From: Minisyncoccia bacterium
GTDB taxonomy: Bacteria > Patescibacteriota > Minisyncoccia > Phycocordibacterales > JAKFXT01
Length of the DNA stretch: 64,000 nt
Assembly (NCBI GenBank): GCA_041485465.1
Contig: JBGPJO010000001.1
Span: 29,017-93,016 of the forward strand
Direction of reading: 5' to 3'
Each line of letters starts with the position of its first letter. Within the stretch, counting starts at the first letter, position 1. Below are positions 7,315-63,930 of this stretch, piece after piece. Both the position numbers and the translations under genes were made by a program. The notes below the pieces were generated by a model that worked only from the letters and a program-made list of their open reading frames with translations, ran no database searches and was not told the origin of the DNA.

Positions 7315-9570
7315 TTATTTCGCAACGGCAAGGGCTTCTTCAAATTTGACTGAGAGTAATTTAGAAATCCCGTTTGCCCCCATCGTCACGCCATAGAGAA
7401 TCCCCGCCCGACTCATTGTTTCGCGATTATGGGTAATCAAAATAAGCTGGGAGTATTTAGAAAGGTTCTCGATCATATCCCCATACTTCTTTGAATTAGC
7501 TTCGTCAAGCGCCGCATCAGTCTCGTCGAGAATGATAAATGGCGGCGGATTGACCTGAGAAATCGCAAAAAGAAGGGCGATAGAGGTAAGAGCGCGTTCT
7601 CCGCCGGAGAGCATCTGAAGCCCCTTGATTCGCTTATTCGGCAAGGAGACGGAAATATCTATTCCCTCTTCAATTTCCACCTCCTCCTCATCCTCCATCT
7701 CCTCGATCCCTTGAAGCTCCGTAAGTCGCCGTTTTCTCACTTCCCGCTCGGCAAGGGAAAGGGACGCTTGACCGCCGCCAAACATAAGCGTAAAGAATTT
7801 TTCAAATTCTGCATTGATCTTCTTGAGCCCTGTATTGAATTCGATATCAAGTTTTTCGGAGAGATTTTTTATAAGACCTTGAAGACTCTCGGCTGAAGTT
7901 TTGAGGTCCTCTATTTCTTTCGATAAAAAGAGATCACGTTTAACAACATCATCAAATTCCTTAAGAACCTCCTCTCCGCCCGCGCCACCCGCCTCCTCAA
8001 GCCGAATCTTAATTTTTTCGAGTTTTTTTCTGCGCCCCTCTTGTTCACTCCGCGGCTCTTCAAGAAAATCTTTTGGTAACGCGAGGTCGTTATAATGAAG
8101 AACCGGTTGACCAAGAAGAGTGACTGCTTCCTCGAGCTCCTCCTTAAACGCCCCCTCCTCACGATTTATCTGGTCGGCTCGAGAAGAGAGGTTGTTTAAG
8201 ATTCCAACAAGCTCCGTTCTTCGATTCATAAGCGTAAACATTTCGCGCTCCGCCTCTCTTCCTCTTTGCCTTCCTTCTTCAATTGAAAATTTTACCGATT
8301 CATAGCGTTTCTTGGTGACAGATTCATTTTCCTCGAACGCCCCTTCCTTTTTTTGAAGTGTTTCTTTTTGCTCTTGTAACTTTGCGATTTCAGCACTAAT
8401 TTCTTTTACGGCCTTAAGAGCCTCCTCGTTTGTTTTTTTTGACGTTACAAAATCTTTAAGAAGAGCGAGCAATTCTCCAATAAGACCGCGAAGAGTGGAA
8501 ACCTCCTCTTCTTTAAGCGCTTTCGCTAAAATTTTTTCTCCCTCTTCACGTAAATTCTCAATTTCAGAGAGATCGACAGCAACCGCTTTCGCTGTTTTTG
8601 CCTCATTCTCCGCTCTCAAAAGTGCTCTCTCCTCTCCAGAGATCATTCCGTCAAGACGACTTATTTCACGACGCGCCTCTTCGAGAGCTTCCCCAGCTTT
8701 CCGAAGCTCTCCCTCGACCTCAATCAGTTCTTTGCTTTTTTTATCAGCGCTCTCCGATTCGGCAAGAATTTTTTTGACTTCATCGAGGCGCCTTTCTATT
8801 TTTTCTTTTTCAGATGTCGGCGTCTTCCCCTCTTCGTCAAATTTTTTCTTTAGATCGGCAAGGTACAATTCTTCGCGCTTCAGATAATTGTGGTAGAGCT
8901 CACTGAGTTCTTCCCGCAAGCTCTCGGCTTTTTTGACTTTTTCGACTTGTTTTTCAAGAAATTTTATGTGCGGCGCGATTTCTTTCCGAAGACCGTTAAC
9001 CTCCCTGATATTTTCCATCGTCTTTTCAAGTTTGCGCTCGCTCTCCTCGCGTTTATAGTGATAGATTTTAAGTCCGAGCGCGTCCTCGATCATTTCTTTG
9101 CGTTCTTTAATTGAGGCGTTCAGTATCCGATCAGCTTCACCCTGGGAGATGATGTGGTGACCAGAAGCGCCAATGTTCGCAGCAGCTAGAAGTTCAAGTA
9201 CGTCTTTAAGCCTGACCTTGCTTCCATTTAAGAGATATTCATTGGCGCCATCACGATAGACCACACGCTCGATCGTAACTTCCGGAAAATCAATAGTAAA
9301 AATTTTTCTGCTGTTATCGAACGTAAGACGCACCCCCGCCCGGCTCAAATTACCGGAAGTCTTTGAGCCGCTAAAAATAAGATCCTCGCCACGTTTTCCC
9401 CGCATGCTCTTAATCGATTGTTCACCTAAAACAAAACTAAAGGCTTCGGCGACGTTTGATTTACCGGAGCCGTTCGGACCAACAATCGCAACAATGGGCG
9501 AGCTAAATTCAAGCTCGCTTTTTTCCGCAAAAGATTTGAAACCGTTTATCTCGAGAGATTTGAGATACAT
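7315..9570 (-). CDS. smc: SMC-family chromosome segregation ATPase, short form apparently without hinge domain
   Basis: N-terminal Walker A (MYLKSLEINGFKSF...GPNGSGKSN), C-terminal ABC signature/Walker B (LSGGERALTSIALLFA...ILDETDAALD) and long coiled coil. No glycine-rich hinge motif seen in the 751-aa protein. Confidence 0.7.
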   Translation of the reverse strand: MYLKSLEINGFKSFAEKSELEFSSPIVAIVGPNGSGKSNVAEAFSFVLGEQSIKSMRGKRGEDLIFSGSKTSGNLSRAGVRLTFDNSRKIFTIDFPEVTIERVVYRDGANEYLLNGSKVRLKDVLELLAAANIGASGHHIISQGEADRILNASIKERKEMIEDALGLKIYHYKREESERKLEKTMENIREVNGLRKEIAPHIKFLEKQVEKVKKAESLREELSELYHNYLKREELYLADLKKKFDEEGKTPTSEKEKIERRLDEVKKILAESESADKKSKELIEVEGELRKAGEALEEARREISRLDGMISGEERALLRAENEAKTAKAVAVDLSEIENLREEGEKILAKALKEEEVSTLRGLIGELLALLKDFVTSKKTNEEALKAVKEISAEIAKLQEQKETLQKKEGAFEENESVTKKRYESVKFSIEEGRQRGREAEREMFTLMNRRTELVGILNNLSSRADQINREEGAFKEELEEAVTLLGQPVLHYNDLALPKDFLEEPRSEQEGRRKKLEKIKIRLEEAGGAGGEEVLKEFDDVVKRDLFLSKEIEDLKTSAESLQGLIKNLSEKLDIEFNTGLKKINAEFEKFFTLMFGGGQASLSLAEREVRKRRLTELQGIEEMEDEEEVEIEEGIDISVSLPNKRIKGLQMLSGGERALTSIALLFAISQVNPPPFIILDETDAALDEANSKKYGDMIENLSKYSQLILITHNRETMSRAGILYGVTMGANGISKLLSVKFEEALAVAK

Positions 9571-56333: not shown

Positions 56334-58322
56334 CTAAAGTCTGGCACCCCTTAGGAATGAAGCGTTGATCGCCACAATTACTGTTGAAAGAGACATAAAA
56401 ACCGCCGCGACAGCAGGTTGCAGTATTATGCCGTACACGGCAAGCGCCCCGGCCGCGATGGGAAGAGCGATCACATTGTAGCCAGTTGCCCAAAACAAGT
56501 TTTGAATCATTTTCGTGTACGTGAGTCTCGAAAGTTTGATTATTTTCGGAATATCGCGCGGATCGTTCTTTACGAGAATAATTCCCGCCGATTCGATAGC
56601 GACGTTCGTCCCCGCACCGATCGCAATACCGAGATCGGCTTGAGTTAAGGCAGGCGCATCATTCACCCCATCGCCAACCATAGCTACCCGCTCCCCCCGA
56701 CTCTGAAGTTTCTTGACCGCATCCGCCTTTTGATCGGGAAGGACATGCGCAAAATACTCATCAATAGAAAGTTCTTTCGATACCCAGGCGGCCACATCTT
56801 CGGCATCGCCCGTTATCATGGCGATTTTAATATCCATTTGCTTGAGGGTGTGCACCGCTTCGCGTGATTCCTCACGTATGACATCCGCAAGAGCGATACT
56901 GCCAATTAACTCTTTCCCTCGTATAACATGCACCACTGTTTTTCCTTCGCGTTCATGTAATTGAATCACCCTTTCGTGGCTTTGTGGAATCTTCACCCCC
57001 TGCTCGCTAAACAGCGTCGAGGAACCTACATAGACGCGCTCCCCTTGAATTTCGACTCGCACGCCTTTTCCGCGCAAGTTTGAGAAAGACGAAGCGGTCG
57101 GGACGTTTATTTGTTTCTCTCTCGCGTACGAAACGATTGCGCGCCCTAAAGGATGCTCCGAGTCCGCATTTGCGGCGGCGGCAAGAGAGAGTGTTTCTAC
57201 TTCTGGCCCAATAACAGCCATGACTCCAAAAGAGCCCTTGGTGAGCGTGCCTGTCTTATCAAACAAAACAGTTGTGATGTTCCGGGCGGCTTCAAGCGCA
57301 AGCCGACGCTTCACAAAGAAGCCATTTCGAGAAGCCAGCGTAGTTGAAATTGATGCGACAAGCGGAATCGCAAGGCCAAGCGCATGCGGGCAGGCGATCA
57401 CCAAAACTGCCACAAGCCGCTCGACTGAAAATCCGAAACTCTCCCCAACGGAGAGCCAGGCAGCGAAGGTAATTCCGCCTGCCGCTACCGCGAGAATTGT
57501 GAGATAAAGGGCGGCGCGATCAGAGAGAAGCTGTAAGCGAGATTTTGAACTTTCCGCTTCCGCTACCAAACGCATAATTCCAGCGAGGAATGTCTGCTCA
57601 CCGAGCTTCTCGAGGAGAACTTTGAGGCTACCATCCCCGTTTATCGATCCGGCAATTACCTCTTTGCCTTTTTCTTTAAAAATAGGCCTTGATTCGCCGG
57701 TAATCAGAGATTCGTCAACCTCAGATTCCCCTTCTACCACAAGCCCGTCGGCCGGTACCTTGCCGCCTGGGCGAATTAGCACAACATCGCCCTGCCGCAG
57801 ATCTGAAATAGAAACTTTAATTGTTTCGCCGTACCGAATGACTTCTGCACTGTCGGGGATAAGCTTGGCAAGTTCGCGAAGTGCCCCTTTTGCTCCCTTC
57901 ACCGCCTTCATTTCGATCCAGTGACCAATAAGCATGACGGCGATTAATGTCGAAAGTTCCCAAAACAAAGTTTTACCATTTCCGAAGAGGACCGAACCGG
58001 CACTGTAGAGATACGCGGCAGAAATTGCGAGAGCAATGAGCGTCATCATTCCCGGAAGACGGTCTTTTAATTCGCCCCAGGCACCTTTCAGAAACACGAA
58101 TCCTCCATAGAAAAAGACGATACTCCCGAGCACAAAGGTAAGATATTCAGAACCAGGAAAAGTAGGCGCAGTTAAACCAAAAAATACTTTCGGCAAATCA
58201 GAATAGAAAATTATTGGAATCGTGAGAACAAGTGTCACCCAAAACTTTTTTAAAAAGTCCTCTGTGTGGTGCCCCGCGTGCCTGTCATGCTCTCCCCTCT
58301 CTTGTCCGTGAGAATGTTCCAT
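56334..58322 (-). CDS. copB: Heavy-metal P1B-type ATPase, CopB-like (CPH motif, His-rich N-terminus)
   Basis: His-rich N-terminus (MEHSHGQERGEHDRHAGHH). TM CPH motif (VIACPHALGLAIP), DKTGTLT and GDGVNDAP motifs. No HMA/CxxC domain. Confidence 0.8.
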   Translation of the reverse strand: MEHSHGQERGEHDRHAGHHTEDFLKKFWVTLVLTIPIIFYSDLPKVFFGLTAPTFPGSEYLTFVLGSIVFFYGGFVFLKGAWGELKDRLPGMMTLIALAISAAYLYSAGSVLFGNGKTLFWELSTLIAVMLIGHWIEMKAVKGAKGALRELAKLIPDSAEVIRYGETIKVSISDLRQGDVVLIRPGGKVPADGLVVEGESEVDESLITGESRPIFKEKGKEVIAGSINGDGSLKVLLEKLGEQTFLAGIMRLVAEAESSKSRLQLLSDRAALYLTILAVAAGGITFAAWLSVGESFGFSVERLVAVLVIACPHALGLAIPLVASISTTLASRNGFFVKRRLALEAARNITTVLFDKTGTLTKGSFGVMAVIGPEVETLSLAAAANADSEHPLGRAIVSYAREKQINVPTASSFSNLRGKGVRVEIQGERVYVGSSTLFSEQGVKIPQSHERVIQLHEREGKTVVHVIRGKELIGSIALADVIREESREAVHTLKQMDIKIAMITGDAEDVAAWVSKELSIDEYFAHVLPDQKADAVKKLQSRGERVAMVGDGVNDAPALTQADLGIAIGAGTNVAIESAGIILVKNDPRDIPKIIKLSRLTYTKMIQNLFWATGYNVIALPIAAGALAVYGIILQPAVAAVFMSLSTVIVAINASFLRGARL

Positions 58323-58365: not shown

Positions 58366-58424
58366 GCGGATGCTGGGAATATTGTAGCAAAAGAAAAAGC
58401 CGTCCTTATGGAGGGGACGGCTTG
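58366..58424 (-). repeat. Repeat copy 9 (degenerate core + AAAAG + hairpin)
   Basis: GCTGGGAATATTGTAGCAAAAGAAAAAGCCGTCCTTATGGAGGGGACGGCTT. On the minus strand this reads hairpin + TTTTTCTTTTGCTACAAT. ~55 nt upstream of the copB start. Confidence 0.7.
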
Positions 58425-58867
58425 AACCCAAGGCGCTTTATCGTCTCGGACATTACCTGCTTAGTCTTTTCCAAACGGTCAAGGAATTCAGACATCACGA
58501 AGTTCGGCTGCAAATCACTTGATTCCCTATACAATCTTACCCAAGGAGAAGCGCGGTCTGCAGCCACAATAAATGGCACTGCGCCGGCTATGGGGTACAC
58601 ATCGATTATGCTAGACCTGCTTAATGGGATAAGCCAGCTGTGCTGATGGCTGGTAGCGAAGTATCCATCATAGACAGAGACTTCAAAATAAGCTGCCAGT
58701 GCGTGACAAATGAGGTGGCACGAGACCTGATTTTTACAGGCGCCCCATCCGTGTTCGTTAGAATCGAACACGATATTCGGCATCTCGCGTATCACGGCAA
58801 CAACTCGAGTGAATGTTTCCATGTCAACAGGCAGGATTTTGCCTTTTGACGGTGCATAGAATTCCAT
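58406..58867 (-). CDS. Hypothetical protein (cassette-like gene 1)
   Basis: 153-aa ORF with no recognised motif. Its stop codon lies in the loop of the repeat hairpin at 58401-58424. Confidence 0.4.
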   Translation of the reverse strand: MEFYAPSKGKILPVDMETFTRVVAVIREMPNIVFDSNEHGWGACKNQVSCHLICHALAAYFEVSVYDGYFATSHQHSWLIPLSRSSIIDVYPIAGAVPFIVAADRASPWVRLYRESSDLQPNFVMSEFLDRLEKTKQVMSETIKRLGFKPSPP

Positions 58868-58980
58868 GACTGCTCCCGTTTTTCTGTGAAATTTGACTAG
58901 TCTGACAGAAACTTACGATATAAAAATTACCTAGTCAATTACTGGCCGCCGCGTGGTTCGACCCGTATTGAATTAATGCC

Positions 58981-59319
58981 CTACATCCCCGGCATCTCCA
59001 TTATCTCCATCACCTCAATCGAGCCGTTAAACCTCGTGAGGTGCGGGCTATCCGCGAAGATTTTGGTGGCCGCGTCGTGTGACTCCGCTTGTACGATAGA
59101 GTATCCGCCGATGTCATTCTTAATATCGGTGACACCGTCCTTCCTGACCTGCTTGGTCTTCCCTACTGGCGCTCCTCCATCGACGAGATCTGCCTTGTGA
59201 TCAGTCATCCACTTCATCCACTCTGCCATACTCTCTTTCCGCTCCTCTGGTGTCCAGCTTGTCATCGCCTTCTGAAATTCCTCAATCGGTGCCTTATACA
59301 ACACAAAAAACTTTTTCAT
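58981..59319 (-). CDS. Hypothetical protein, possibly YciI-like alpha+beta barrel
   Basis: 112 aa. MKKFFVLYKAP...DIGGYSIVQAESHDAATKIFADSP resembles the YciI-family layout. Weak. Confidence 0.35.
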   Translation of the reverse strand: MKKFFVLYKAPIEEFQKAMTSWTPEERKESMAEWMKWMTDHKADLVDGGAPVGKTKQVRKDGVTDIKNDIGGYSIVQAESHDAATKIFADSPHLTRFNGSIEVMEIMEMPGM

Positions 59320-59382
59320 ACGTTTTTTTTAATTAATTACTAAATAGTCCGAAGAGTATACACCAAAATCATAAAGAAAACC

Positions 59383-59453
59383 CCGCCATTGGTGGGGATG
59401 TTGGAACCTTTTTAGGTAGAAACAAGCCCCTCTCGCATAACGATAAGGGGCTT
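59383..59453 (-). repeat. Repeat copy 11
   Basis: GGGGATGTTGGAACCTTTTTAGG followed by the hairpin AAGCCCCTCTCGCATAACGATAAGGGGCTT. Confidence 0.6.
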
Positions 59454-59485
59454 ACTCTTCTTTGATGATCATTTTCATCTCCTTT

Positions 59486-59719
59486 TTATTGTGGCCAGTT
59501 TACTTTCACGCCATGAGCAGCAAGATGCTTCAAAATCTCAGTCCACTTTTGCTTTGAGTGTTTCTTACACTCACTGCAGTTAATATTCCCGTATCTAACC
59601 GCCCCACATACGGGACAGACAGGATGGCTATGAGGCAGGGTTTCAAAACACGTGAGAAAGGGACAAGGCCCGTCAAAGTCCATTTTTTTAGCTTTACCCA
59701 TAATCACCTCCAACAACAA
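59486..59719 (-). CDS. Small Cys-rich zinc-finger-like protein
   Basis: CPFLTC...HSHPVCPVCG...CSEC motifs in 77 aa. Confidence 0.4.
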   Translation of the reverse strand: MLLEVIMGKAKKMDFDGPCPFLTCFETLPHSHPVCPVCGAVRYGNINCSECKKHSKQKWTEILKHLAAHGVKVNWPQ

Positions 59720-59757
59720 TATATATTAAATAATGCAATCTGTCAACTTCTGCTGAC

Positions 59758-59820
59758 CGCGTGAGACGACGCTGGAACCATTGTAGCAAAAGAAAAAGCC
59801 GCCCAGTAATCGGGGCGGCA
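59758..59820 (-). repeat. Repeat copy 10
   Basis: GACGACGCTGGAACCATTGTAGCAAAAGAAAAAGCCGCCCAGTAATCGGGGCGGC. Confidence 0.75.
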
Positions 59821-59826
59821 TTCCCG

Positions 59827-60171
59827 CTAGGCGGGACAAAATTTGACAGGAAGTAACAGTGTCTGCACGAACACTGCTTTTGCTGTCTCTGAAAGAGAAG
59901 AGGCTGTCACTATCGCCTTCTCTGGAGTACCCACTTCGCCGTGTACTTGAACAGAAGCAAGCACGTCTCCTTTTGTCTCAAACAGTTCTGCACACTTGGA
60001 CTCAGGATTGAATCTGGTGTGCACGATCGCCCCATCAACGGAAAGGGCGGCGGCAATGTCATCGAGATGCCGCCTGAACTCAGCGACATAGAAGCCGTTG
60101 CAACCATGCCAGGGGTCAATCACGGCAATTACTCGTTCCCTAAAGAAGTGAGCCACCAATCTTCTGAACAT
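59827..60171 (-). CDS. Hypothetical protein
   Basis: 114-aa ORF, GGGAG RBS upstream, no recognised family. Confidence 0.4.
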   Translation of the reverse strand: MFRRLVAHFFRERVIAVIDPWHGCNGFYVAEFRRHLDDIAAALSVDGAIVHTRFNPESKCAELFETKGDVLASVQVHGEVGTPEKAIVTASSLSETAKAVFVQTLLLPVKFCPA

Positions 60172-60221
60172 CTCTTTACTCCCTGGTTTTTTATTCCAAA
60201 ACTACAATATCCTATTTTCTT

Positions 60222-60262
60222 AAAATGTCGAACTAGTGCTCTGGGACAATGTTAGAAGCCCA
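60222..60262 (-). repeat. Repeat copy 1 (variant core GTTAGAAG)
   Basis: AAATGTCGAACTAGTGCTCTGGGACAATGTTAGAAGCC. Confidence 0.55.
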
Positions 60263-60277
60263 CGACACTTACTAGAA

Positions 60278-60433
60278 TTAACTTTTTGTTGAATCAGCCC
60301 AGAGAAAAACAAGGCCTATCGCTATCCAGAATAGGACCTTCAACCAGTTTTGAGTTTGTACCGCTTCTATAACAGCAACGCCAAAGAAAAGTACGAATAT
60401 AGCGAAATTAGTACCTAACTTTAAATTTTTCAT
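60278..60433 (-). CDS. Possible 51-aa two-TM small membrane protein
   Basis: Manual translation gives MKNLKLGTNFAIFVLFFGVAVIEAVQTQNWLKVLFWIAIGLVFLWADSTKS. It is preceded by a repeat copy. Below the ORF-track size cut-off. No clear RBS. Confidence 0.3.
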   Translation of the reverse strand: MKNLKLGTNFAIFVLFFGVAVIEAVQTQNWLKVLFWIAIGLVFLWADSTKS

Positions 60434-60457
60434 GCTTTATATTTTATCAAACTTATG

Positions 60458-60492
60458 AGCTGGCTGTCTGGGATAAAGTTGGAACCTATTTT
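60458..60492 (-). repeat. Repeat copy 2
   Basis: GCTGGCTGTCTGGGATAAAGTTGGAACCTATTTT. Confidence 0.7.
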
Positions 60493-60749
60493 TTCTTATA
60501 AGTAAGGAATTGGGTAACGACGAGCCAAGACATTATCATTCCTAAAGACATAGGAACGATAAGGACAACATCAGTCTGTAAAAATCCATAAATACTCCAA
60601 AAAGAGTATGAGACTGCGAGAATAAAAAAATAAAAGAAAGATAATCCGTCGACACTCTTTCTTATATAATTCTTTCGCACTTGCGCGGTAAGTCCGATAC
60701 AAGTCACCAGGGGCGACAAGACTACCGTAATGATTTTAATAGCTAACAT
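60486..60749 (-). CDS. SemiSWEET-like (PQ-loop) small sugar-transporter-family membrane protein
   Basis: 87 aa, three TM. TAQVRKNYIRKSVDGLSFFYFFILAVSYSFWSIYGFL resembles the PQ-loop/MtN3 motif. Confidence 0.45.
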   Translation of the reverse strand: MLAIKIITVVLSPLVTCIGLTAQVRKNYIRKSVDGLSFFYFFILAVSYSFWSIYGFLQTDVVLIVPMSLGMIMSWLVVTQFLTYKKK

Positions 60750-60785
60750 TTACCAATAATAACAATGTTCATCTTAAAAAGTCGC

Positions 60786-60812
60786 TCGTTTGATATATGT
60801 TGGAACTCTTTT
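60786..60812 (-). repeat. Repeat copy 3 (truncated)
   Basis: TGATATATGTTGGAACTCTTTTG. Confidence 0.45.
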
Positions 60813-60960
60813 GACCGCATGATAATGTTTTCGCACTTGGTAGGAGGCTCCGCAGCTACGGACTGCCTATAGGCAGAAACGGCGCGGGTAAGCATGCATC
60901 TATCCGTTGACCCTATGTAACAGCGCAAGCGAGGGTGGCAGTTCGGAAAGACGACACATT

Positions 60961-61041
60961 TGAGCCCGCTTCCCTTCTTCCATAAGGACGGGCTCTTTTT
61001 AATGTCGAACTGGGGGCCTGGGACGACGTTGGAACTTTATT
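60961..61041 (-). repeat. Repeat copy 4 with preceding hairpin
   Basis: Hairpin GAGCCCGCTTCCCTTCTTCCATAAGGACGGGCTC, then TTTTTAATGTCGAACTGGGGGCCTGGGACGACGTTGGAACTTTATTG. Confidence 0.75.
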
Positions 61042-61555
61042 GCACCACCGTAAGGTTGTTTCCCTCAATTTTGAGATATTTTGATACGCCTACGGAGGGC
61101 TGTGCGGTCATGGGCTCTCCTGCCTTGCGGTCAGCATAATTAACTATCGACTGTCCGTTCCTGATTTCGGTCGTCTGCGGAGCAATCCTGTCCCCGAGCA
61201 GTATCGCATTCGTGCCTTGGTATCCGTTCGCCGTTTTGAGCGCAACAACCGCATAGTAGAACGTTCCGCTGCCACCGCCGTTTTGGGTGAGGATAAATGC
61301 AACGTCAGGCATGCCATCGCCGTTGAGATCCCCGGTCGCATCATTGCCGAAATATGTTGTCGTAATTTTTGATGTCGAACCGGGTACCGTCGCAACCTCC
61401 GAAACGCCGTTCACGAGAGTGACGAGTTTGCCGTCGATTATATACGTGGCATTTTTGTAATCTGTGTTTTGCGGTACCGCATTAGTGTTGCTCATCAAAA
61501 ACCACACCCCAGCGGCGGCAACGACGATCACAGCGAGCGATAGACAGGTTTTCAT
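61037..61555 (-). CDS. Secreted hypothetical protein with FG-GAP-like DLNGDGMPDVAF motif
   Basis: Signal peptide, 172 aa. Confidence 0.45.
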   Translation of the reverse strand: MKTCLSLAVIVVAAAGVWFLMSNTNAVPQNTDYKNATYIIDGKLVTLVNGVSEVATVPGSTSKITTTYFGNDATGDLNGDGMPDVAFILTQNGGGSGTFYYAVVALKTANGYQGTNAILLGDRIAPQTTEIRNGQSIVNYADRKAGEPMTAQPSVGVSKYLKIEGNNLTVVQ

Positions 61556-61573
61556 TGCATATAGTATATCGCG

Positions 61574-61608
61574 TGCTGGGGGTCTGGTACGATGTTGGAA
61601 CTATTTTA
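61574..61608 (-). repeat. Repeat copy 5
   Basis: GCTGGGGGTCTGGTACGATGTTGGAACTATTTTAC. Abuts the stop of the upstream gene (61610); 18 nt from the next start (61555). Confidence 0.75.
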
Positions 61609-61609
61609 C

Positions 61610-62185
61610 TTAATGATTTACATCAAAGTGAGTATAAAACTTGCTCTGAGTATAGTCTTTAAACGCAGCGGCTTTCTTGGCTCGTATTTCTAAATGATGG
61701 GGAGCTTTTTCTAGTCCATCGGGACTGTTTGTTAAATCTTGTATTTCTTCAAAACCAGCATCTGCAAGAATGTCTCTCAAAAGCTCAAAGTAATATCCAA
61801 ATTTATGCACGTCGTATTCATCTTGTTGCCATCCAAACAAACTCCCAAATCCCCAGTAGCGATCATTCAGTCCTCTTTCTTTTACATAAAAACTTTCGTG
61901 TGTTCCCTGAAGGATTTGTTCAAGATGCCAAAGTAGGTTGGGACAAATAATATAAATTGCTCCCCCGACTTTTAAAACGCGATTCCATTCCGAAAGAGTT
62001 TCAATAAATTCCTTAAGCGTGAAATGCTCAATTACATGTCGGCTATAAATTTCATCAACGGTTTCATTTTCGAAAGGCAATTCGTCCGCTCTACAGATGT
62101 GATCAACCCCAGGTATATTACGGATATCACAAGTCTCATAGCCTTCGCGTTTCTTTTTTCCACTCCCAATCTCTATTTTTTTCAT
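61610..62185 (-). CDS. Class I SAM-dependent methyltransferase (type 11-like)
   Basis: Motif I IEIGSGKK. Post-I acidic residue. RHVIEHF...VLKVGGAIYIICPN. Confidence 0.6.
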   Translation of the reverse strand: MKKIEIGSGKKKREGYETCDIRNIPGVDHICRADELPFENETVDEIYSRHVIEHFTLKEFIETLSEWNRVLKVGGAIYIICPNLLWHLEQILQGTHESFYVKERGLNDRYWGFGSLFGWQQDEYDVHKFGYYFELLRDILADAGFEEIQDLTNSPDGLEKAPHHLEIRAKKAAAFKDYTQSKFYTHFDVNH

Positions 62186-62347
62186 AATTTGCTGGCCTCA
62201 CCGGAATCGGATAATTCTCCACCAAACCTCGCAAGAGTTTTCAGGAAAATCTTACTATATCAAAATGACGTGCCTTGGACGCTCAAAAATTGGCGACTCT
62301 ATCACTAAAAAGACATGCGAACACTGCAACTGATCCCATTATGCGAG

Positions 62348-62743
62348 CTAGCGTAGCCAGTCCCGCCAACTTCGCGGCCAGCCGCGTATGAGAAGAAAAG
62401 CGAGGGAGGCAGTGATATTGATCCATCGCTCGACGAACTCCCATATATCCTGATTAATGAATGGGAGGACGCGCATGACTGCGGTCCACGTTGTCCAGAT
62501 AATCGCCCACAAAAGAACGATACGGATCGGCTTGAAGAGAAGAAAGAGCGAGACCATGATATCAAGGATACCGATCAAGAAAAGAAATTGCGTTGCGAGC
62601 GGCGCATCCCAGCCCCCGAAGGCCATGATCCACTTGACCCACTCGGGATTCCCCTCAAGCGCAGGAACGCCATGTCCAATAAATAAGCCGAAGAGGCCAA
62701 TCCTGAAGAGCCATTCAACCCACCTTAAATTCGCCATCGGCAT
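62348..62743 (-). CDS. Hypothetical four-TM membrane protein (DoxX-like?)
   Basis: Trp-rich TM protein. Weak resemblance to the DoxX family. Confidence 0.35.
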   Translation of the reverse strand: MPMANLRWVEWLFRIGLFGLFIGHGVPALEGNPEWVKWIMAFGGWDAPLATQFLFLIGILDIMVSLFLLFKPIRIVLLWAIIWTTWTAVMRVLPFINQDIWEFVERWINITASLAFLLIRGWPRSWRDWLR

Positions 62744-62904
62744 GTGTAATTAATCTGACCTACGTTTTAAGTATACAGCCGCTTGCGACATGCAGATACT
62801 TTTGTGTAAATAGTATGTGGATAACATAATCGGGGCGAATTACCCGTTGATGAGCTTATCACAAAGAATTTCAATACTCTTCGGAGTCCGAACCTGGCTT
62901 AAAA

Positions 62905-63030
62905 AAACCTTCGTCGAAAGTGTGCTCATTTCGACGCGATTTTTACGCTTAAAAATCGGCTGGGGGTCTGGGACGACGTTGGAACCATTGTAACAAAAGA
63001 AAAATGCCAGTACTTATTAGGTGACTGGCA
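62905..63030 (-). repeat. Repeat copy 6 (most complete: hairpin + core + AAAAG + hairpin)
   Basis: Hairpin CGTCGAAAGTGTGCTCATTTCGACG, then GCTGGGGGTCTGGGACGACGTTGGAACCATTGTAACAAAAGAAAAA, then hairpin TGCCAGTACTTATTAGGTGACTGGCA. Confidence 0.8.
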
Positions 63031-63060
63031 AACCCCATGGGTATCTTTACGACTCAGGCG

Positions 63061-63417
63061 TCACTTGTAGAGGTAGGACGTCCTGGCCCATCCCCACCCA
63101 CCTTCGACTGGACCTTCGAAAAAATAGAGGTCTTGACCAGGATCAAGTTTGTGTTCTTTCCCGTTGTACGGAATGATGGTCAAGTTTGACGCCTCATCCC
63201 CCTTGATTTCAATACACCGGACTATTTGAGTTTGGTCTTCCTCCGTCGGCTGTAGGTTGAACATTGATGGATGCTTCCAGGCATCCGTCTTGCGTTGTCG
63301 GATATCGCTATAGCCACTTTCAACCAAAATGGCTACGACTTCATCGGGGGTCTTGCCCCTCAGATCAAGCTTGAGCGGTTTTACCGCACTCCTGACTTCA
63401 GCGGTCGCTGTAATCAT
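63061..63417 (-). CDS. Hypothetical protein (weak HicA-like N-terminal resemblance)
   Basis: 118 aa; VVAILVESGYSDIRQRKTDAWKHP resembles the HicA core. GGAGG RBS upstream. Confidence 0.35.
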   Translation of the reverse strand: MITATAEVRSAVKPLKLDLRGKTPDEVVAILVESGYSDIRQRKTDAWKHPSMFNLQPTEEDQTQIVRCIEIKGDEASNLTIIPYNGKEHKLDPGQDLYFFEGPVEGGWGWARTSYLYK

Positions 63418-63478
63418 GCTGGTATACCTCCGTTACGTCTGCGCAGTAGCTTACAATAAATTTATTTAAAAGTCATTA

Positions 63479-63510
63479 GCTGTCGGTCTGGTTCAACGTT
63501 GGAACCTTTC
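63479..63510 (-). repeat. Repeat copy 7
   Basis: GCTGTCGGTCTGGTTCAACGTTGGAACCTTTC. Abuts the stop of the gene 63510-63818. Confidence 0.7.
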
Positions 63511-63818
63511 TAACGGTGGACTATGAGATACAGGCCAACCGAGACAAACACCGCAGTACTTACTGCAAAAATAATGAGCGTCTGGATGAATAAACTAACC
63601 GACTCTTTCTTTTGTCCTTCGAGAAAAAGCTTAAGCGGCTGATACAAAAAGATATAGCCCATACTCGCAGCGGAGAAAACAAAAAGCGATAGCATCACAA
63701 TGGGTATAAGAACGCTATTTTCTATATGGATATATGGTGGAACATAGAACAATAATGAAGCAACCAACGCTATATATAACAAACCTGCAAGTGCGTTTAC
63801 GATAGGGTTTTTGGTCAT
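63510..63818 (-). CDS. Small three-TM membrane protein
   Basis: 102 aa, hydrophobic. Confidence 0.4.
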   Translation of the reverse strand: MTKNPIVNALAGLLYIALVASLLFYVPPYIHIENSVLIPIVMLSLFVFSAASMGYIFLYQPLKLFLEGQKKESVSLFIQTLIIFAVSTAVFVSVGLYLIVHR

Positions 63819-63859
63819 GCTCTTGTAACTTTACTGGTTGGTTAAAAGTTCTGTTACGA

Positions 63860-63930
63860 GCTGGCAGTCTGGTTCGATGTTGGAACTATTTTAGAAAAGG
63901 AAAAGGCCGGACACCTGTGAAGGGCCGGCC
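63860..63930 (-). repeat. Repeat copy 8 (core + AAAAGG + hairpin)
   Basis: GCTGGCAGTCTGGTTCGATGTTGGAACTATTTTAGAAAAGGAAAAGGCCGGACACCTGTGAAGGGCCGGCC. Confidence 0.75.

Follow-up and report, generated by a model that had tools for sequence, protein, structure and literature searches.

The window, the whole stretch of DNA analysed here (64 kb), carries at 58.37-63.89 kb a single motif in 11 co-oriented copies, of which eight are solid and three decayed, set among small minus-strand genes. We refer to the conserved repeat unit as the M-site. The unit, ~34 nt long, reads AwAAAR-GTTCCAAC-a-TCGTcCCAGAC-nnC-CAGC on the coding strand, with a core of ~27-34 nt. Copies (c1 to c11) and genes are given below from the side nearest the tRNA-Gln gene; bit scores are from nhmmer.

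63860-63892, minus strand: M-site c11, first full copy from the tRNA-Gln side (36.5 bits, E 1.5e-9), with a terminator hairpin (63898-63930) and a TAAAAT box ahead of it.
63510-63818, minus strand: cassette gene, 102 aa, predicted membrane protein, no Pfam family; neighbours unchanged across five near-identical contigs.
63479-63511, minus strand: M-site c10 (23.1 bits); the TAG stop of the 102-aa gene lies 4 nt 5' of GGTTCC.
63061-63417, minus strand: cassette gene, 118 aa, no Pfam family, with its own SD and terminator.
62959-62991, minus strand: M-site c9 (38.2 bits), matching the CPR consensus exactly; upstream are a hairpin, a T-run and then TGTTACAAT (extended -10 box).
62912-62958, minus strand: double-hairpin element right after c9, CGATTTTTA-AGCG-TAAAAATCG then CGTCGAAA..TTTCGACG; computed fold not significant; over 88 bp that take in the M-site it is ~91% identical to L107, whose sequences on either side are unrelated.
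62348-62743, minus strand: cassette gene, 131 aa, membrane protein, no Pfam family.
61610-62185, minus strand: cassette gene, 191 aa, SAM-dependent methyltransferase (Pfam Methyltransf_11, 1.1e-8).
61575-61607, minus strand: M-site c8 (38.7 bits); methyltransferase stop TAA 9 nt upstream.
61037-61555, minus strand: cassette gene, 172 aa, signal-peptide protein, weak FG-GAP Pfam match only; TATACT, 7 nt and ATG give a leaderless-looking start.
61009-61041, minus strand: M-site c7, with CAGT at its end (33.3 bits); stop TAA 1 nt upstream.
60807-61008, minus strand: interval between c7 and c6 with no credible ORF, fold z = -0.14 and no Rfam match; probably a decayed cassette.
60780-60812, minus strand: M-site c6, decayed, GTTCCAAC alone retained (9.6 bits, E 0.41).
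60486-60749, minus strand: cassette gene, 87 aa, SemiSWEET-type (Pfam MtN3_slv 2.7e-9, PQ-loop 4.1e-8).
60459-60491, minus strand: M-site c5 (22.2 bits); stop TAG abuts GTTCCAAC.
60278-60433, minus strand: cassette gene, 51 aa, membrane peptide (ORF list); TGATAAAAT, 7 nt, then ATG.
60232-60264, minus strand: M-site c4, decayed (CTTCTAACATTGTCCCAGAG), from the repeat search; three mismatches to an 18-nt core.
59827-60171, minus strand: cassette gene, 114 aa, no Pfam family.
59752-59784, minus strand: M-site c3, partly decayed (GTTCCAGCGTCGTCTCAC), from the repeat search; a terminator (59798-59819) and TGCTACAAT lie 5' of it.
59486-59719, minus strand: cassette gene, 77 aa, Cys-rich, no Pfam match.
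59381-59413, minus strand: M-site c2, 5' half alone retained (14.3 bits).
58981-59319, minus strand: cassette gene, 112 aa, YCII-related (Pfam YCII 2.4e-8); the family recurs in or beside five other arrays.
58406-58867, minus strand: gene, 153 aa, last small gene before copB, no Pfam family; homologues P0003 and P0004 have ordinary chromosomal surroundings with no M-sites, and its cassette status is doubtful.
58366-58392, minus strand: M-site remnant c1 (TGCTACAAT-ATTCCCAGC), upstream of copB, from the repeat search.
56334-58322, minus strand: P-type (CopB-like) ATPase, distal array end (Pfam E1-E2_ATPase/Hydrolase); in L125 an M-site stands 4.5 kb upstream of a homologue.

The family was recovered by a general repeat search of the window. 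A profile built from unrelated genomes found eight copies by nhmmer, all on the minus strand at 59.4-63.9 kb with the scores listed; c1, c3 and c4 are detectable solely by eye or repeat search. When both strands of the 64 kb were searched, GTTGGAAC occurred eight times, always on the plus strand and within 59400-63886, and a 22-nt core pattern matched the window three times versus none in 100 shuffles. Pattern search and nhmmer found no M-site in the other 58 kb. A sequence-only reading of this DNA had placed the repeat at 58.3-64.0 kb and nowhere else in the window, between minus-strand genes, and our pattern, repeat and nhmmer searches bear this out for every copy. That reading also put a stop codon against the repeat, which holds for c5, c7, c8 and c10 (0-9 nt ahead of GTTCCAAC). 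The length of 45-70 bp given for the repeat exceeds the conserved core, and 'invariant' overstated that core because the exact 28-mer is carried by c9 alone. The longer module it called complete (terminator hairpin, TTTTTCTTTTG and TAnAAT) is limited to c1, c3, c9 and c11. One gene per copy is correct except at 61610-62743, where the methyltransferase and 131-aa genes occupy a single inter-site interval, and at 60807-61008. Its SemiSWEET (MtN3/PQ-loop), methyltransferase and neighbouring ATPase stand, and Pfam also confirms a YCII domain among the cassette genes; the 'Zn-finger-like' label of the 77-aa protein finds no Pfam match. Folding of both strands, proposed as a check, revealed no M-site hairpin (MFE 0 to -3 kcal/mol, z -0.7 to +1.5), and the site is asymmetric, not palindromic and without terminal inverted repeats.

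The suggestion that the repeat be sought in related CPR genomes proved fruitful: the M-site occurs in 174 Patescibacteria loci with 427 copies in all (148 in 54 genome loci and 279 in 120 metagenome loci), and in more than one array per genome. Its sequence is unusually well conserved between distant genomes, the consensus being partly set by the patterns used to collect the loci and free of them in the A-rich prefix and, for the genome set, the CAGC suffix. Mixed orientation was seen in only two of the 174 loci, and the median spacing is 540 bp (IQR 403-694). The longest ORF fills 77-78% of the inter-site interval, about one gene per interval, and runs with or against the site at about 2:1 (+64/-33 in the genome set, +101/-52 in the metagenome set). 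Since genes occur in both orientations and the sites are constant, site polarity is a property of the array and not of its genes. In 52% of co-oriented cases no more than 11 nt separate the stop codon from the site, and the start codon follows CAGC at 2 to ~300 nt. Many loci show an extended -10 box and a leaderless-looking ATG within a few bases after CAGC, and after many M-sites comes an inverted gene, its 3' end and terminator first. The 97 cassette proteins fell into 96 blastp clusters, with cargo that includes NUDIX, GNAT, methyltransferases, HAD, Ham1, NERD, DUF2726 and others; the array flanks are conserved (serS, ftsQ-like, dus, dnaX and tRNA-Gln). M-site quality is flat from head to tail (32 arrays, median rho 0.0), and strict head-only insertion is therefore not supported.

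The arrays are polar. At their head stands a tRNA-Gln 3' end, either in the complete gene or as an orphan 23-nt fragment, here termed the T-site. Both this anchor and the wide distribution lie outside the window and were missed by the sequence-only reading. In this genome tRNA-Gln lies at 6733-6806 of L001, ~2.2 kb past the window end, giving an island of ~7.8 kb from tRNA-Gln to copB; the 2.2 kb adjoining the tRNA gene hold a frameshifted HTH gene and no good M-site. A tRNA-Gln gene is just upstream of the array and co-oriented in 19 of 53 genome loci. Among metagenome loci 27 of 33 tRNA genes are tRNA-Gln, all 27 upstream and co-oriented, and ~29 orphan fragments head arrays that have no full gene. 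A T-site precedes the first M-site in 60 of 114 informative loci, lies inside the array in one and on the opposite strand in one; 30 loci show none although their sequence reaches 2.5 kb or more ahead of the first M-site. The M-site, 5 nt longer than the tRNA end, matches it at 20 of 23 positions, with an alignment score of 23 against -6.4 +/- 4.6 for 5000 shuffles, of which the best reached 17; the 3' ends of tRNA-Pro and tRNA-Gly give 7 and 1. Judged by this alignment, the M-site is a diverged copy of the tRNA-Gln 3' end. Over the last 8 nt, tRNA-Gln and M-sites match better within a genome (5.73) than across genomes (5.32 +/- 0.15; 0 of 5000 permutations), the covariation expected from hybrid junctions. 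Tandem partial tRNA-Gln copies are present in L016.

Homology between genomes breaks exactly at the M-site. In two pairs of loci (L262 and L325, L010 and L310) the upstream sequences are unrelated and identity is 85-93% from GGTTCC/CAAC on. A 100% identical cassette shared by L318 and L351 is preceded in one contig by an M-site and in the other by an orphan T-site, with identity starting at GCCAGC. Homologues of the 118-aa cassette protein (P0009 in L254, P0012 in L255; 52-60% identity) belong to other arrays and differ in their neighbours on either side, with homology beginning right after CAGC. Near-identical contigs keep one cassette order, and no circular cassettes, empty sites or strain-level presence/absence polymorphism were seen. 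A search for a tyrosine recombinase beyond 64 kb had been suggested. Ours (regex, and jackhmmer seeded with one protein) found no recombinase gene in the window or in L001, and because of this design serine recombinases or novel enzymes may have escaped; the array head is tRNA-Gln, with no attI. Across the 174 loci it placed an Xer-like tyrosine recombinase near the array in only two, the related L061 and L363, which share the same protein. The M-site had no match in 2.9 million viral contigs and no plasmid, Rfam or literature match, and the 100 cassette ORFs included no integrase remnants or phage genes.

Our best reading is an integron-like cassette integration platform at tRNA-Gln, served by an unlinked recombinase, and it is fairly probable that the repeat is the recombination site of a cassette array headed by the T-site. 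The anatomy and polarity of the arrays, their tRNA-Gln anchor, T/M homology and breakpoints at the site are observed; the crossover chemistry, circular intermediates and identity of the enzyme are inferred. A unit comprises a single gene (two in rare cases), in most instances apparently with a promoter of its own and in some with a terminator too, and one M-site after it; the gene can face either way, the orientation of the M-site being constant. We predict that a circular cassette with one M-site is inserted into the T-site or a resident M-site by conservative site-specific recombination. Crossover in or beside the common ...C-CAGC end would leave the tRNA intact and make each junction a hybrid site. 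The T-site would thus play the attI role and the M-site that of attC, and the recombinase, not being encoded beside the array, would act in trans. A cassette array was one of the three readings first offered, none of them preferred; its integron-like logic is supported because sites are co-oriented whatever the gene direction, cassettes are unrelated, the head site is unique and homology breaks at the site, but the array is not an integron.

It is rather unlikely that exchange proceeds with no dedicated enzyme, the 28-34-nt site serving as portable homology. On that view Patescibacteria, which take up DNA, would swap or insert cassettes by RecA-type recombination between such sites, in the manner of 'minimal mobile elements'. 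The virtual absence of linked recombinases (2/174 loci), the strong M-site conservation across distant genomes that a homology anchor requires and the lack of a head-to-tail age gradient agree with such exchange. However, a stretch of only ~9-13 contiguous identical bases is common to T- and M-sites. RecA would need more; even so, one cassette occurs behind either, with the junction in GCCAGC. Nor does RecA-type exchange require strict co-orientation and a unique head site, both of which conservative site-specific insertion predicts.

We also think it unlikely that the copies are scars of serial integration, that is, att copies and leftover cargo of ordinary tRNA-Gln-targeting prophages or integrative mobilisable elements that brought their own integrase and have since decayed. 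In tRNA-linked islands partial tRNA repeats are the classic scar of integration, as in tycheposon islands (10.1101/2020.12.28.424599), and the tandem copies in L016 and the frameshifted HTH gene, with no good M-site in the 2.2 kb beside this genome's tRNA, fit this account. Yet the intervals are very regular (one ORF each), stop codons crowd the site in half of co-oriented cases, and viral contigs and cassette ORFs yielded no trace of such elements. Scars should, moreover, copy the tRNA end of their own genome and then decay, whereas the M-site is a distinct cross-genome variant with 5 extra nt.

A common promoter/operator or conserved 5' leader that joins the small genes in one regulon, as the sequence-only reading had also offered, appears improbable. 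All window genes are co-oriented with the site, TGnTACAAT stands immediately 5' of GGTTCC in c1, c3 and c9 (three good extended -10 boxes), and -10 boxes with leaderless-looking starts are common elsewhere. As a general explanation it nevertheless fails, because roughly one flanking gene in three runs against a site that itself keeps the array orientation, and the site-to-start distance is so variable. Many sites are followed instead by the end of an inverted gene, the tRNA-Gln 3' end takes the equivalent position at the array head, and a sigma-70 promoter scan showed no enrichment (12 found, 9.1 expected). A generic dispersed repeat (REP/BIME- or MITE-like) unrelated to genes is very improbable and largely refuted, for although the M-site is short, intergenic and multicopy, it has no palindrome, fold or terminal inverted repeats, is absent from the remaining 58 kb, and is co-oriented and conserved across distant genomes, whereas REPs are species-specific; to call it an island-specific repeat is true yet uninformative.

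Among known systems, Xer-dependent modules include IMEX elements at dif and the pdif modules of Acinetobacter plasmids. They resemble M-site arrays in their small gene modules and ~28-bp bounding sites and, as proposed for the M-site, are moved by a recombinase that the host encodes at another locus. Sites of the dif type form imperfect palindromes (11-6-11), those of pdif modules lie in alternating orientation, and dif itself marks the terminus; in contrast, the M-site is asymmetric, always direct and beside tRNA-Gln. Genomes carry it in more than one array, and GC skew in the window does not switch at the array. SCC cassette chromosomes insert at the 3' end of rlmH and form tandem composite arrays bounded by direct repeats. 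They share site-specific tandem insertion at a conserved gene's 3' end and, with the proposed system, recombinase-less elements moved in trans. Units of 10-60 kb, known ccr serine recombinases and a protein-coding target are found on the SCC side only.

Tycheposons of Prochlorococcus encode their own tyrosine or large serine recombinase with replication/packaging modules and span several kb to >10 kb (10.1101/2020.12.28.424599). As in other tRNA-targeting elements, and like M-site arrays, one particular tRNA gene anchors the island, which carries accessory cargo, repeated partial-tRNA att copies divide successive insertions, and newcomers would push older units inward. M-site units, in contrast, are ~0.3-1.4 kb without hallmark genes, and their site, rather than copying the host tRNA, is a specialised variant common to distant genomes.

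A true integron was rejected on three counts: no attC-type hairpin, no IntI and no attI. Integron attC sites are imperfect palindromes of 57-141 nt recombined as folded single strands, and CALINs are integrase-less attC clusters. The M-site, by contrast, is 28-34 nt, unstructured and conserved in sequence; its arrays have no IntI beside the head, attI or Pc promoter, the head is a tRNA gene end, and most cassettes appear to have their own promoter. As in M-site arrays, the sites of sedentary chromosomal integrons and CALINs are co-oriented along a polar array, each unit holds one mostly small gene unrelated to the rest, and the unique head site differs from the site that cassettes carry. In both, cassettes are filled by ORFs that end at the site, the cargo is rich in orphans and in GNAT, NUDIX and VOC-type enzymes, and occasional inverted cassettes have their own promoters.

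Our analyses agreed with the sequence-only reading that a repeat family is confined to the end of the window, as pattern, shuffle, repeat and profile searches gave the same result. The sequence GTTGGAAC occurs eight times on the plus strand (59400-63886) and nowhere else in the 64 kb on either strand, and a 22-nt core pattern gave 3 matches in the window versus 0 in 100 shuffles. The family was recovered independently by a repeat search of the window, and a profile made solely from other genomes found eight copies, all on the minus strand at 59.4-63.9 kb. Three further copies (c1, c3 and c4) are decayed and were detectable by eye or repeat search alone; in the window, decay falls on the distal copies. 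Read on the coding (minus) strand, the repeated unit, termed here the M-site, is AwAAAR-GTTCCAAC-r-TCGwmCCAGAC-nnC-CAGC. All window copies sit between minus-strand ORFs, and in c5, c7, c8 and c10 the preceding stop codon lies 0-9 nt 5′ of GTTCCAAC. The longer 45-70-nt repeat proposed at first, with its hairpin, T-run and TAnAAT hexamer, was present in that form in four copies and lacking in the others. Among the products of the window cassettes (units between successive M-sites), Pfam recognized a YCII protein, a SemiSWEET-type MtN3/PQ-loop protein and a class I methyltransferase, and gave no family for the other seven tested. The 153-aa gene adjoining copB, the CopB-like ATPase gene at the distal end, was rejected as a mobile cassette because its homologues sit outside arrays.

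A second contig of the same organism (L001, NCBI GCA_041490425.1; L-numbers denote loci fetched from other contigs) overlaps the window by 3446 bp with 2 mismatches and runs past its end. The array goes on for ~2.2 kb past the window and ends at a tRNA-Gln(TTG) gene, 5′ of which lie dnaX, a ClpB-like gene and dus. An IntI-like or Xer-type gene had been suggested as something to look for past 64 kb, and no integrase or other recombinase of this kind was found in the L001 extension. The 2.2 kb between the tRNA-Gln and the first good M-site also hold a 189-aa membrane protein and a 136-aa ORF without assignment, and this stretch may be a remnant of a different element. Within the island, the 3′ end of the genome's own tRNA-Gln was not found as a direct copy.

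Features of the window array and its extension
Window 58.37-63.89 kb, minus strand: M-site copies c1-c11
Window 60807-61008, between c7 and c6: terminator-like hairpin (GAGCCCG...CGGGCTC), no credible ORF, no significant fold (z = -0.14); probably a decayed cassette
Window 62912-62958, minus strand: pair of perfect hairpins immediately 3′ of c9, within the 210-nt leader of a 131-aa membrane-protein gene; fold as a whole not significant (z = -1.2)
L001 6733-6806: tRNA-Gln(TTG)
L001 8082-8450 (~0.5-0.9 kb past the window end): frameshifted ORF, HTH-like by eye, with only a weak, below-cut-off Pfam match (YdaS_toxin, E 0.0034)
L001 ~8608-8640: single decayed site of the 2.2-kb stretch

The c9 hairpin segment is ~91% identical to a segment of L107, where neither flank is related and a different gene, in inverted orientation, lies downstream.

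The same site was found in related genomes, as the sequence-only reading had proposed to check. When a 20-nt degenerate pattern was run against one genome per species, it matched dozens of genomes of Patescibacteria (mostly Paceibacteria/Parcubacteria groups, judging from record titles), together with records labelled Saccharibacteria and Berkelbacteria and isolated chance matches elsewhere. An nhmmer profile yielded at least 148 copies at at least 54 genome loci, and a stricter pattern added at least 120 metagenome loci with at least 279 copies. The core consensus positions are fixed by the search patterns used to collect the loci; at pattern-free positions, an A at -6 is present in 92% of copies and the C-C-A-G-C end is conserved at 82-95% per position. 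The 20-nt pattern also lies within a conserved coding sequence (...GTCGAAGGTTCCAACGTCGTCCCAGACA...) of Rhodobacterales, other Proteobacteria and many IMG/VR contigs, which is presumably a phage- or GTA-type gene. Among the matches listed, it accounts for L007, L009, L012 and ~35 other genome loci and for 112 of 120 viral loci, and we treated this match as coincidental and unrelated to the Patescibacteria site.

Among the loci listed, M-site copies are co-oriented in all but 2. They are spaced at a median of 540 bp (IQR 403-694), and 77-78% of each interval is filled by its longest ORF. This ORF has the direction of the sites in roughly two thirds of the intervals and the opposite direction in roughly one third (+64/-33 in the genome set, +101/-52 in the metagenome set). 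The cassettes have little in common with one another, with 97 proteins forming 96 clusters by blastp, and Pfam analysis of 100 cassette ORFs returned scattered accessory enzymes. In a larger sample, the families recurring in or near arrays were GNAT, PhnB/VOC, MsrA, RibD_C, YCII and DUF2726. Some genomes carry multiple arrays (L025/L027; L054/L069/L104). One cassette is of another sort: at L010 5320-5407 (also L310 ~730-852), an ORF-less 169-bp unit between two M-sites contains an 88-nt sequence that matches the L10/L11-binding GTPase-associated centre of bacterial 23S rRNA (positions 1075-1162; Rfam LSU, 43 bits, E 5e-12). This sequence is ~85% conserved between the two genomes and could be an rRNA-mimic decoy or regulatory element; SRP RNA was considered for this cassette and rejected, as the sequence is 23S rRNA-like.

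Such an arrangement could in principle reflect a promoter or operator shared by a regulon, with the repeat forming the 5′ leader of each gene. A shared promoter would be expected to keep a fixed orientation and distance to its genes, whereas here ~34% of genes are inverted and the start codon lies 2 to ~300 nt away. With many M-sites also abutting the terminator of an inverted gene, we rejected a general promoter or operator function. ECF, sigma-54 and sigma-28 promoters were dismissed by inspection as unfit in spacing or strand, and a sigma-70 scan gave no enrichment. What survives of this reading is local: window c1, c3 and c9 have a good TGnTACAAT box that points into the site, from which read-out into the next cassette is possible.

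Two further features were seen beside the sites. A TGnTAnnnT box followed 6-7 nt later by ATG, without a Shine-Dalgarno sequence, is very common downstream of M-sites and of the tRNA-Gln 3′ ends that head arrays (for example L110, L121, L025, L035, L041 and window c1 (copB), c5 and c8); judged by sequence, these boxes are predicted extended -10 promoters that would yield leaderless mRNAs. When the upstream cassette is inverted, a ~32-nt conserved extension, GTCTrGACAGAACC-N19-GGTTCC..., often stands 5′ of the M-site (L016, L020, L025, L027, L052, L064, L102, L117). It contains an inverted partial M-site copy together with a promoter-like TGTTAGGTT box directed toward the inverted gene, and those inverted genes, unlike the forward ones, have Shine-Dalgarno sequences.

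The tRNA-Gln at the head of the window array recurs at the heads of other arrays. A co-oriented tRNA-Gln lies a few hundred bases before the first site in 19 of 53 genome loci, and in the metagenome loci (at least 120), tRNA-Gln makes up 27 of 33 tRNA genes, all 27 upstream and co-oriented. Arrays without a full tRNA-Gln are often headed by an orphan 23-nt fragment, GGTTCGAtCCCTAGTCTsCCAGC, which is the T-loop-to-discriminator end of tRNA-Gln (~29 cases, all co-oriented). We refer to either form as the T-site. A T-site precedes the first M-site in 60 of the 114 loci whose upstream sequence reaches at least 800 nt; one locus has a T-site within the array and one has it on the other strand. At 30 loci, no T-site is present in the 2.5 kb upstream. 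In L025 (4875-4897), the fragment heads an array 7 nt 3′ of tRNA-Pro in a tRNA-Arg/Gly/Pro cluster, so an array head need not be seeded at the tRNA-Gln gene itself. In L016 (~1408-1710, reverse-complement coordinates), at least 2 tandem partial copies (D-arm to 3′ end), with a masked N run between, follow a full tRNA-Gln; they are scars of integration, or else the repeat was misassembled.

The consensus M-site and the T-site are identical at 20 of 23 positions, the M-site having 5 extra bases. Their alignment scores 23, against -6.4 ± 4.6 (maximum 17) in 5000 shuffles, and the comparison ends of tRNA-Pro and tRNA-Gly score 7 and 1, respectively. By this match, the M-site is a diverged tRNA-Gln 3′ end. 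DNA just 3′ of the tRNA end also resembles DNA following M-sites, with an extended -10 box and ATG 6-7 nt later. Over the last 8 nt, tRNA-Gln and M-sites match better within genomes (5.73) than across them (5.32 ± 0.15; 0 of 5000 permutations), with CAAC at both in L078 and AAGC at both in L103. This is exactly the agreement expected if the segment 3′ of a crossover were exchanged.

Comparisons between loci place breakpoints at the site. L262 and L325 are unrelated upstream and ~93% identical from GGTTCC on, and L010 and L310 break in the same pattern. One cassette is 100% identical in L318 and L351, preceded by an M-site in the former and an orphan T-site in the latter, and the identity starts at GCCAGC. 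Homologues of the window's 118-aa cassette product (52-60% identity) occur in two other arrays, L254 and L255, both of which have other genes on either side and decayed sites; the homology begins directly after CAGC. Presence or absence of cassettes between strains had been expected if these are mobile; strain-level polymorphism was rejected, since all near-identical contigs keep an identical order. Direct evidence of excision was not found, and a head-to-tail decay gradient was absent in 32 arrays. Contigs from short reads often end at or a few bases from an M- or T-site, with 120-123-bp inter-contig overlaps (JBGPTD010000007.1, the L001 end at ~window 60555; L264/L324, L267/L355, L286/L288). 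Arrays thus fragment assemblies and may be under-represented in metagenome-assembled genomes.

The model that the data support best is conservative site-specific insertion of cassettes. Circular single-gene cassettes, each with one M-site, would be inserted at the tRNA-Gln 3′ end or a resident M-site. A crossover in or beside the shared C-CAGC end would leave the tRNA intact and create hybrid junctions; the logic would be an integron's, the T-site playing the part of attI and the M-site that of attC.

An intI tyrosine recombinase beside the head is a feature of integrons, and here no tyrosine recombinase was found in the window, L001 or 172 of 174 array loci. This search combined a box I/II regex with jackhmmer seeded with the Xer-like protein of L061, which serine or novel enzymes would escape. 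Among 100 cassette ORFs, no recombinase appeared in the 25 of 36 matched Pfam families listed or by jackhmmer. Ahead of the array head lie dnaX and dus, or else various housekeeping genes; orphan T-sites are preceded by unrelated housekeeping genes; and nothing was found to recur beyond such flanks. One lineage has an Xer-type tyrosine recombinase gene (L061 4195-5142 and L363 5434-6507), with Pfam Phage_integrase (1e-39) and an N-terminal SAM-like domain. It ends ~10-40 nt from the last M-site, convergent with the array, and is the sole recombinase seen near any array.

Patescibacteria have tiny genomes and few recognizable mobile elements, and their routes of gene exchange are poorly understood. 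We put at about an even chance the broader proposal that they carry a hitherto undescribed, integron-analogous gene-capture platform, with the tRNA-Gln 3′ end as primary site, a 28-nt unstructured double-strand site of tRNA origin per mobile single-gene cassette and an unlinked recombinase, either a co-opted housekeeping enzyme (Xer-type, for example) or a new family. If so, much of the radiation could exchange cassettes, as the site is nearly identical in distant lineages, and these tiny-genome episymbionts would share an accessory gene pool. Such a conserved tRNA-anchored platform would account for the location and turnover of much strain-specific gene content and would mean that integron-like gene capture arose with neither attC hairpins nor a linked integrase, and the hunt for the responsible recombinase would become a well-posed question. 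T- and M-sites would offer a simple sequence handle for cataloguing the accessory gene pool in metagenomes and explaining assembly breaks in Patescibacteria genomes, possibly also for gene insertion into the few cultivable, naturally transformable members.

Among known systems, integrons share with these arrays their polarity, unique primary site, co-oriented sites and one gene per unit, a resemblance that is functional only. The integron-like reading offered at the outset stands for array layout and falls for an attC fold and an intI at the head. The integron attC is a 57-141-nt imperfect palindrome (R″-L″...L′-R′) folding as a single strand, in contrast to the ~34-nt conserved unit here. GTTGGAA matches the GTTRRRY core at only 6 of 7 positions, six M-site copies folded as single-strand DNA on both strands gave an MFE of 0 to -3 kcal/mol (z -0.7 to +1.5), and the repeat search reported no inverted repeats at sites. 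The structured, attC-like repeat first envisaged, or any other hairpin site, was thus rejected. Xer/dif sites (IMEX, pdif) of 28-31 bp have two inverted 11-bp arms and a 6-8-bp spacer; the M-site halves show no inverted symmetry on inspection of the consensus, there is no GC-skew switch at the window array and several arrays occur per genome, so this identity was also rejected. REP/BIME elements and MITEs have a palindrome or terminal inverted repeats, which the M-site does not show, and are dispersed genome-wide in both orientations; over the 64 kb of this genome, the generic REP-like scatter that the sequence-only reading had allowed for was not seen. An Rfam family (no match at gathering or E-value thresholds) and a phage or plasmid origin (0 viral contig matches to the Patescibacteria-specific pattern, nothing by blastn against plasmid and phage collections) were rejected. 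Neither the motif nor cassette arrays anchored at tRNA-Gln were found described in the literature searched, whose coverage is incomplete.

Tycheposons and classical tRNA-integrating elements use a specific tRNA gene and leave partial tRNA att repeats, which the tRNA-Gln anchor, orphan fragments and M-site homology parallel here. The tRNA-linked islands built by tycheposons have a geography like that of M-site arrays (10.1101/2020.12.28.424599). Those elements bring their own integrase (tyrosine or large serine) and replication/packaging genes, none of which was found in a search that covered the listed Pfam families of 100 cassette ORFs and jackhmmer seeded with the Xer-like protein of L061. 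The arrays are unusual in their single-gene units, the tRNA-derived, specialized site kept across distant genomes and the lack of a linked recombinase, and among known kinds we place them with the site-specific formation of cassettes or islands at a tRNA gene.
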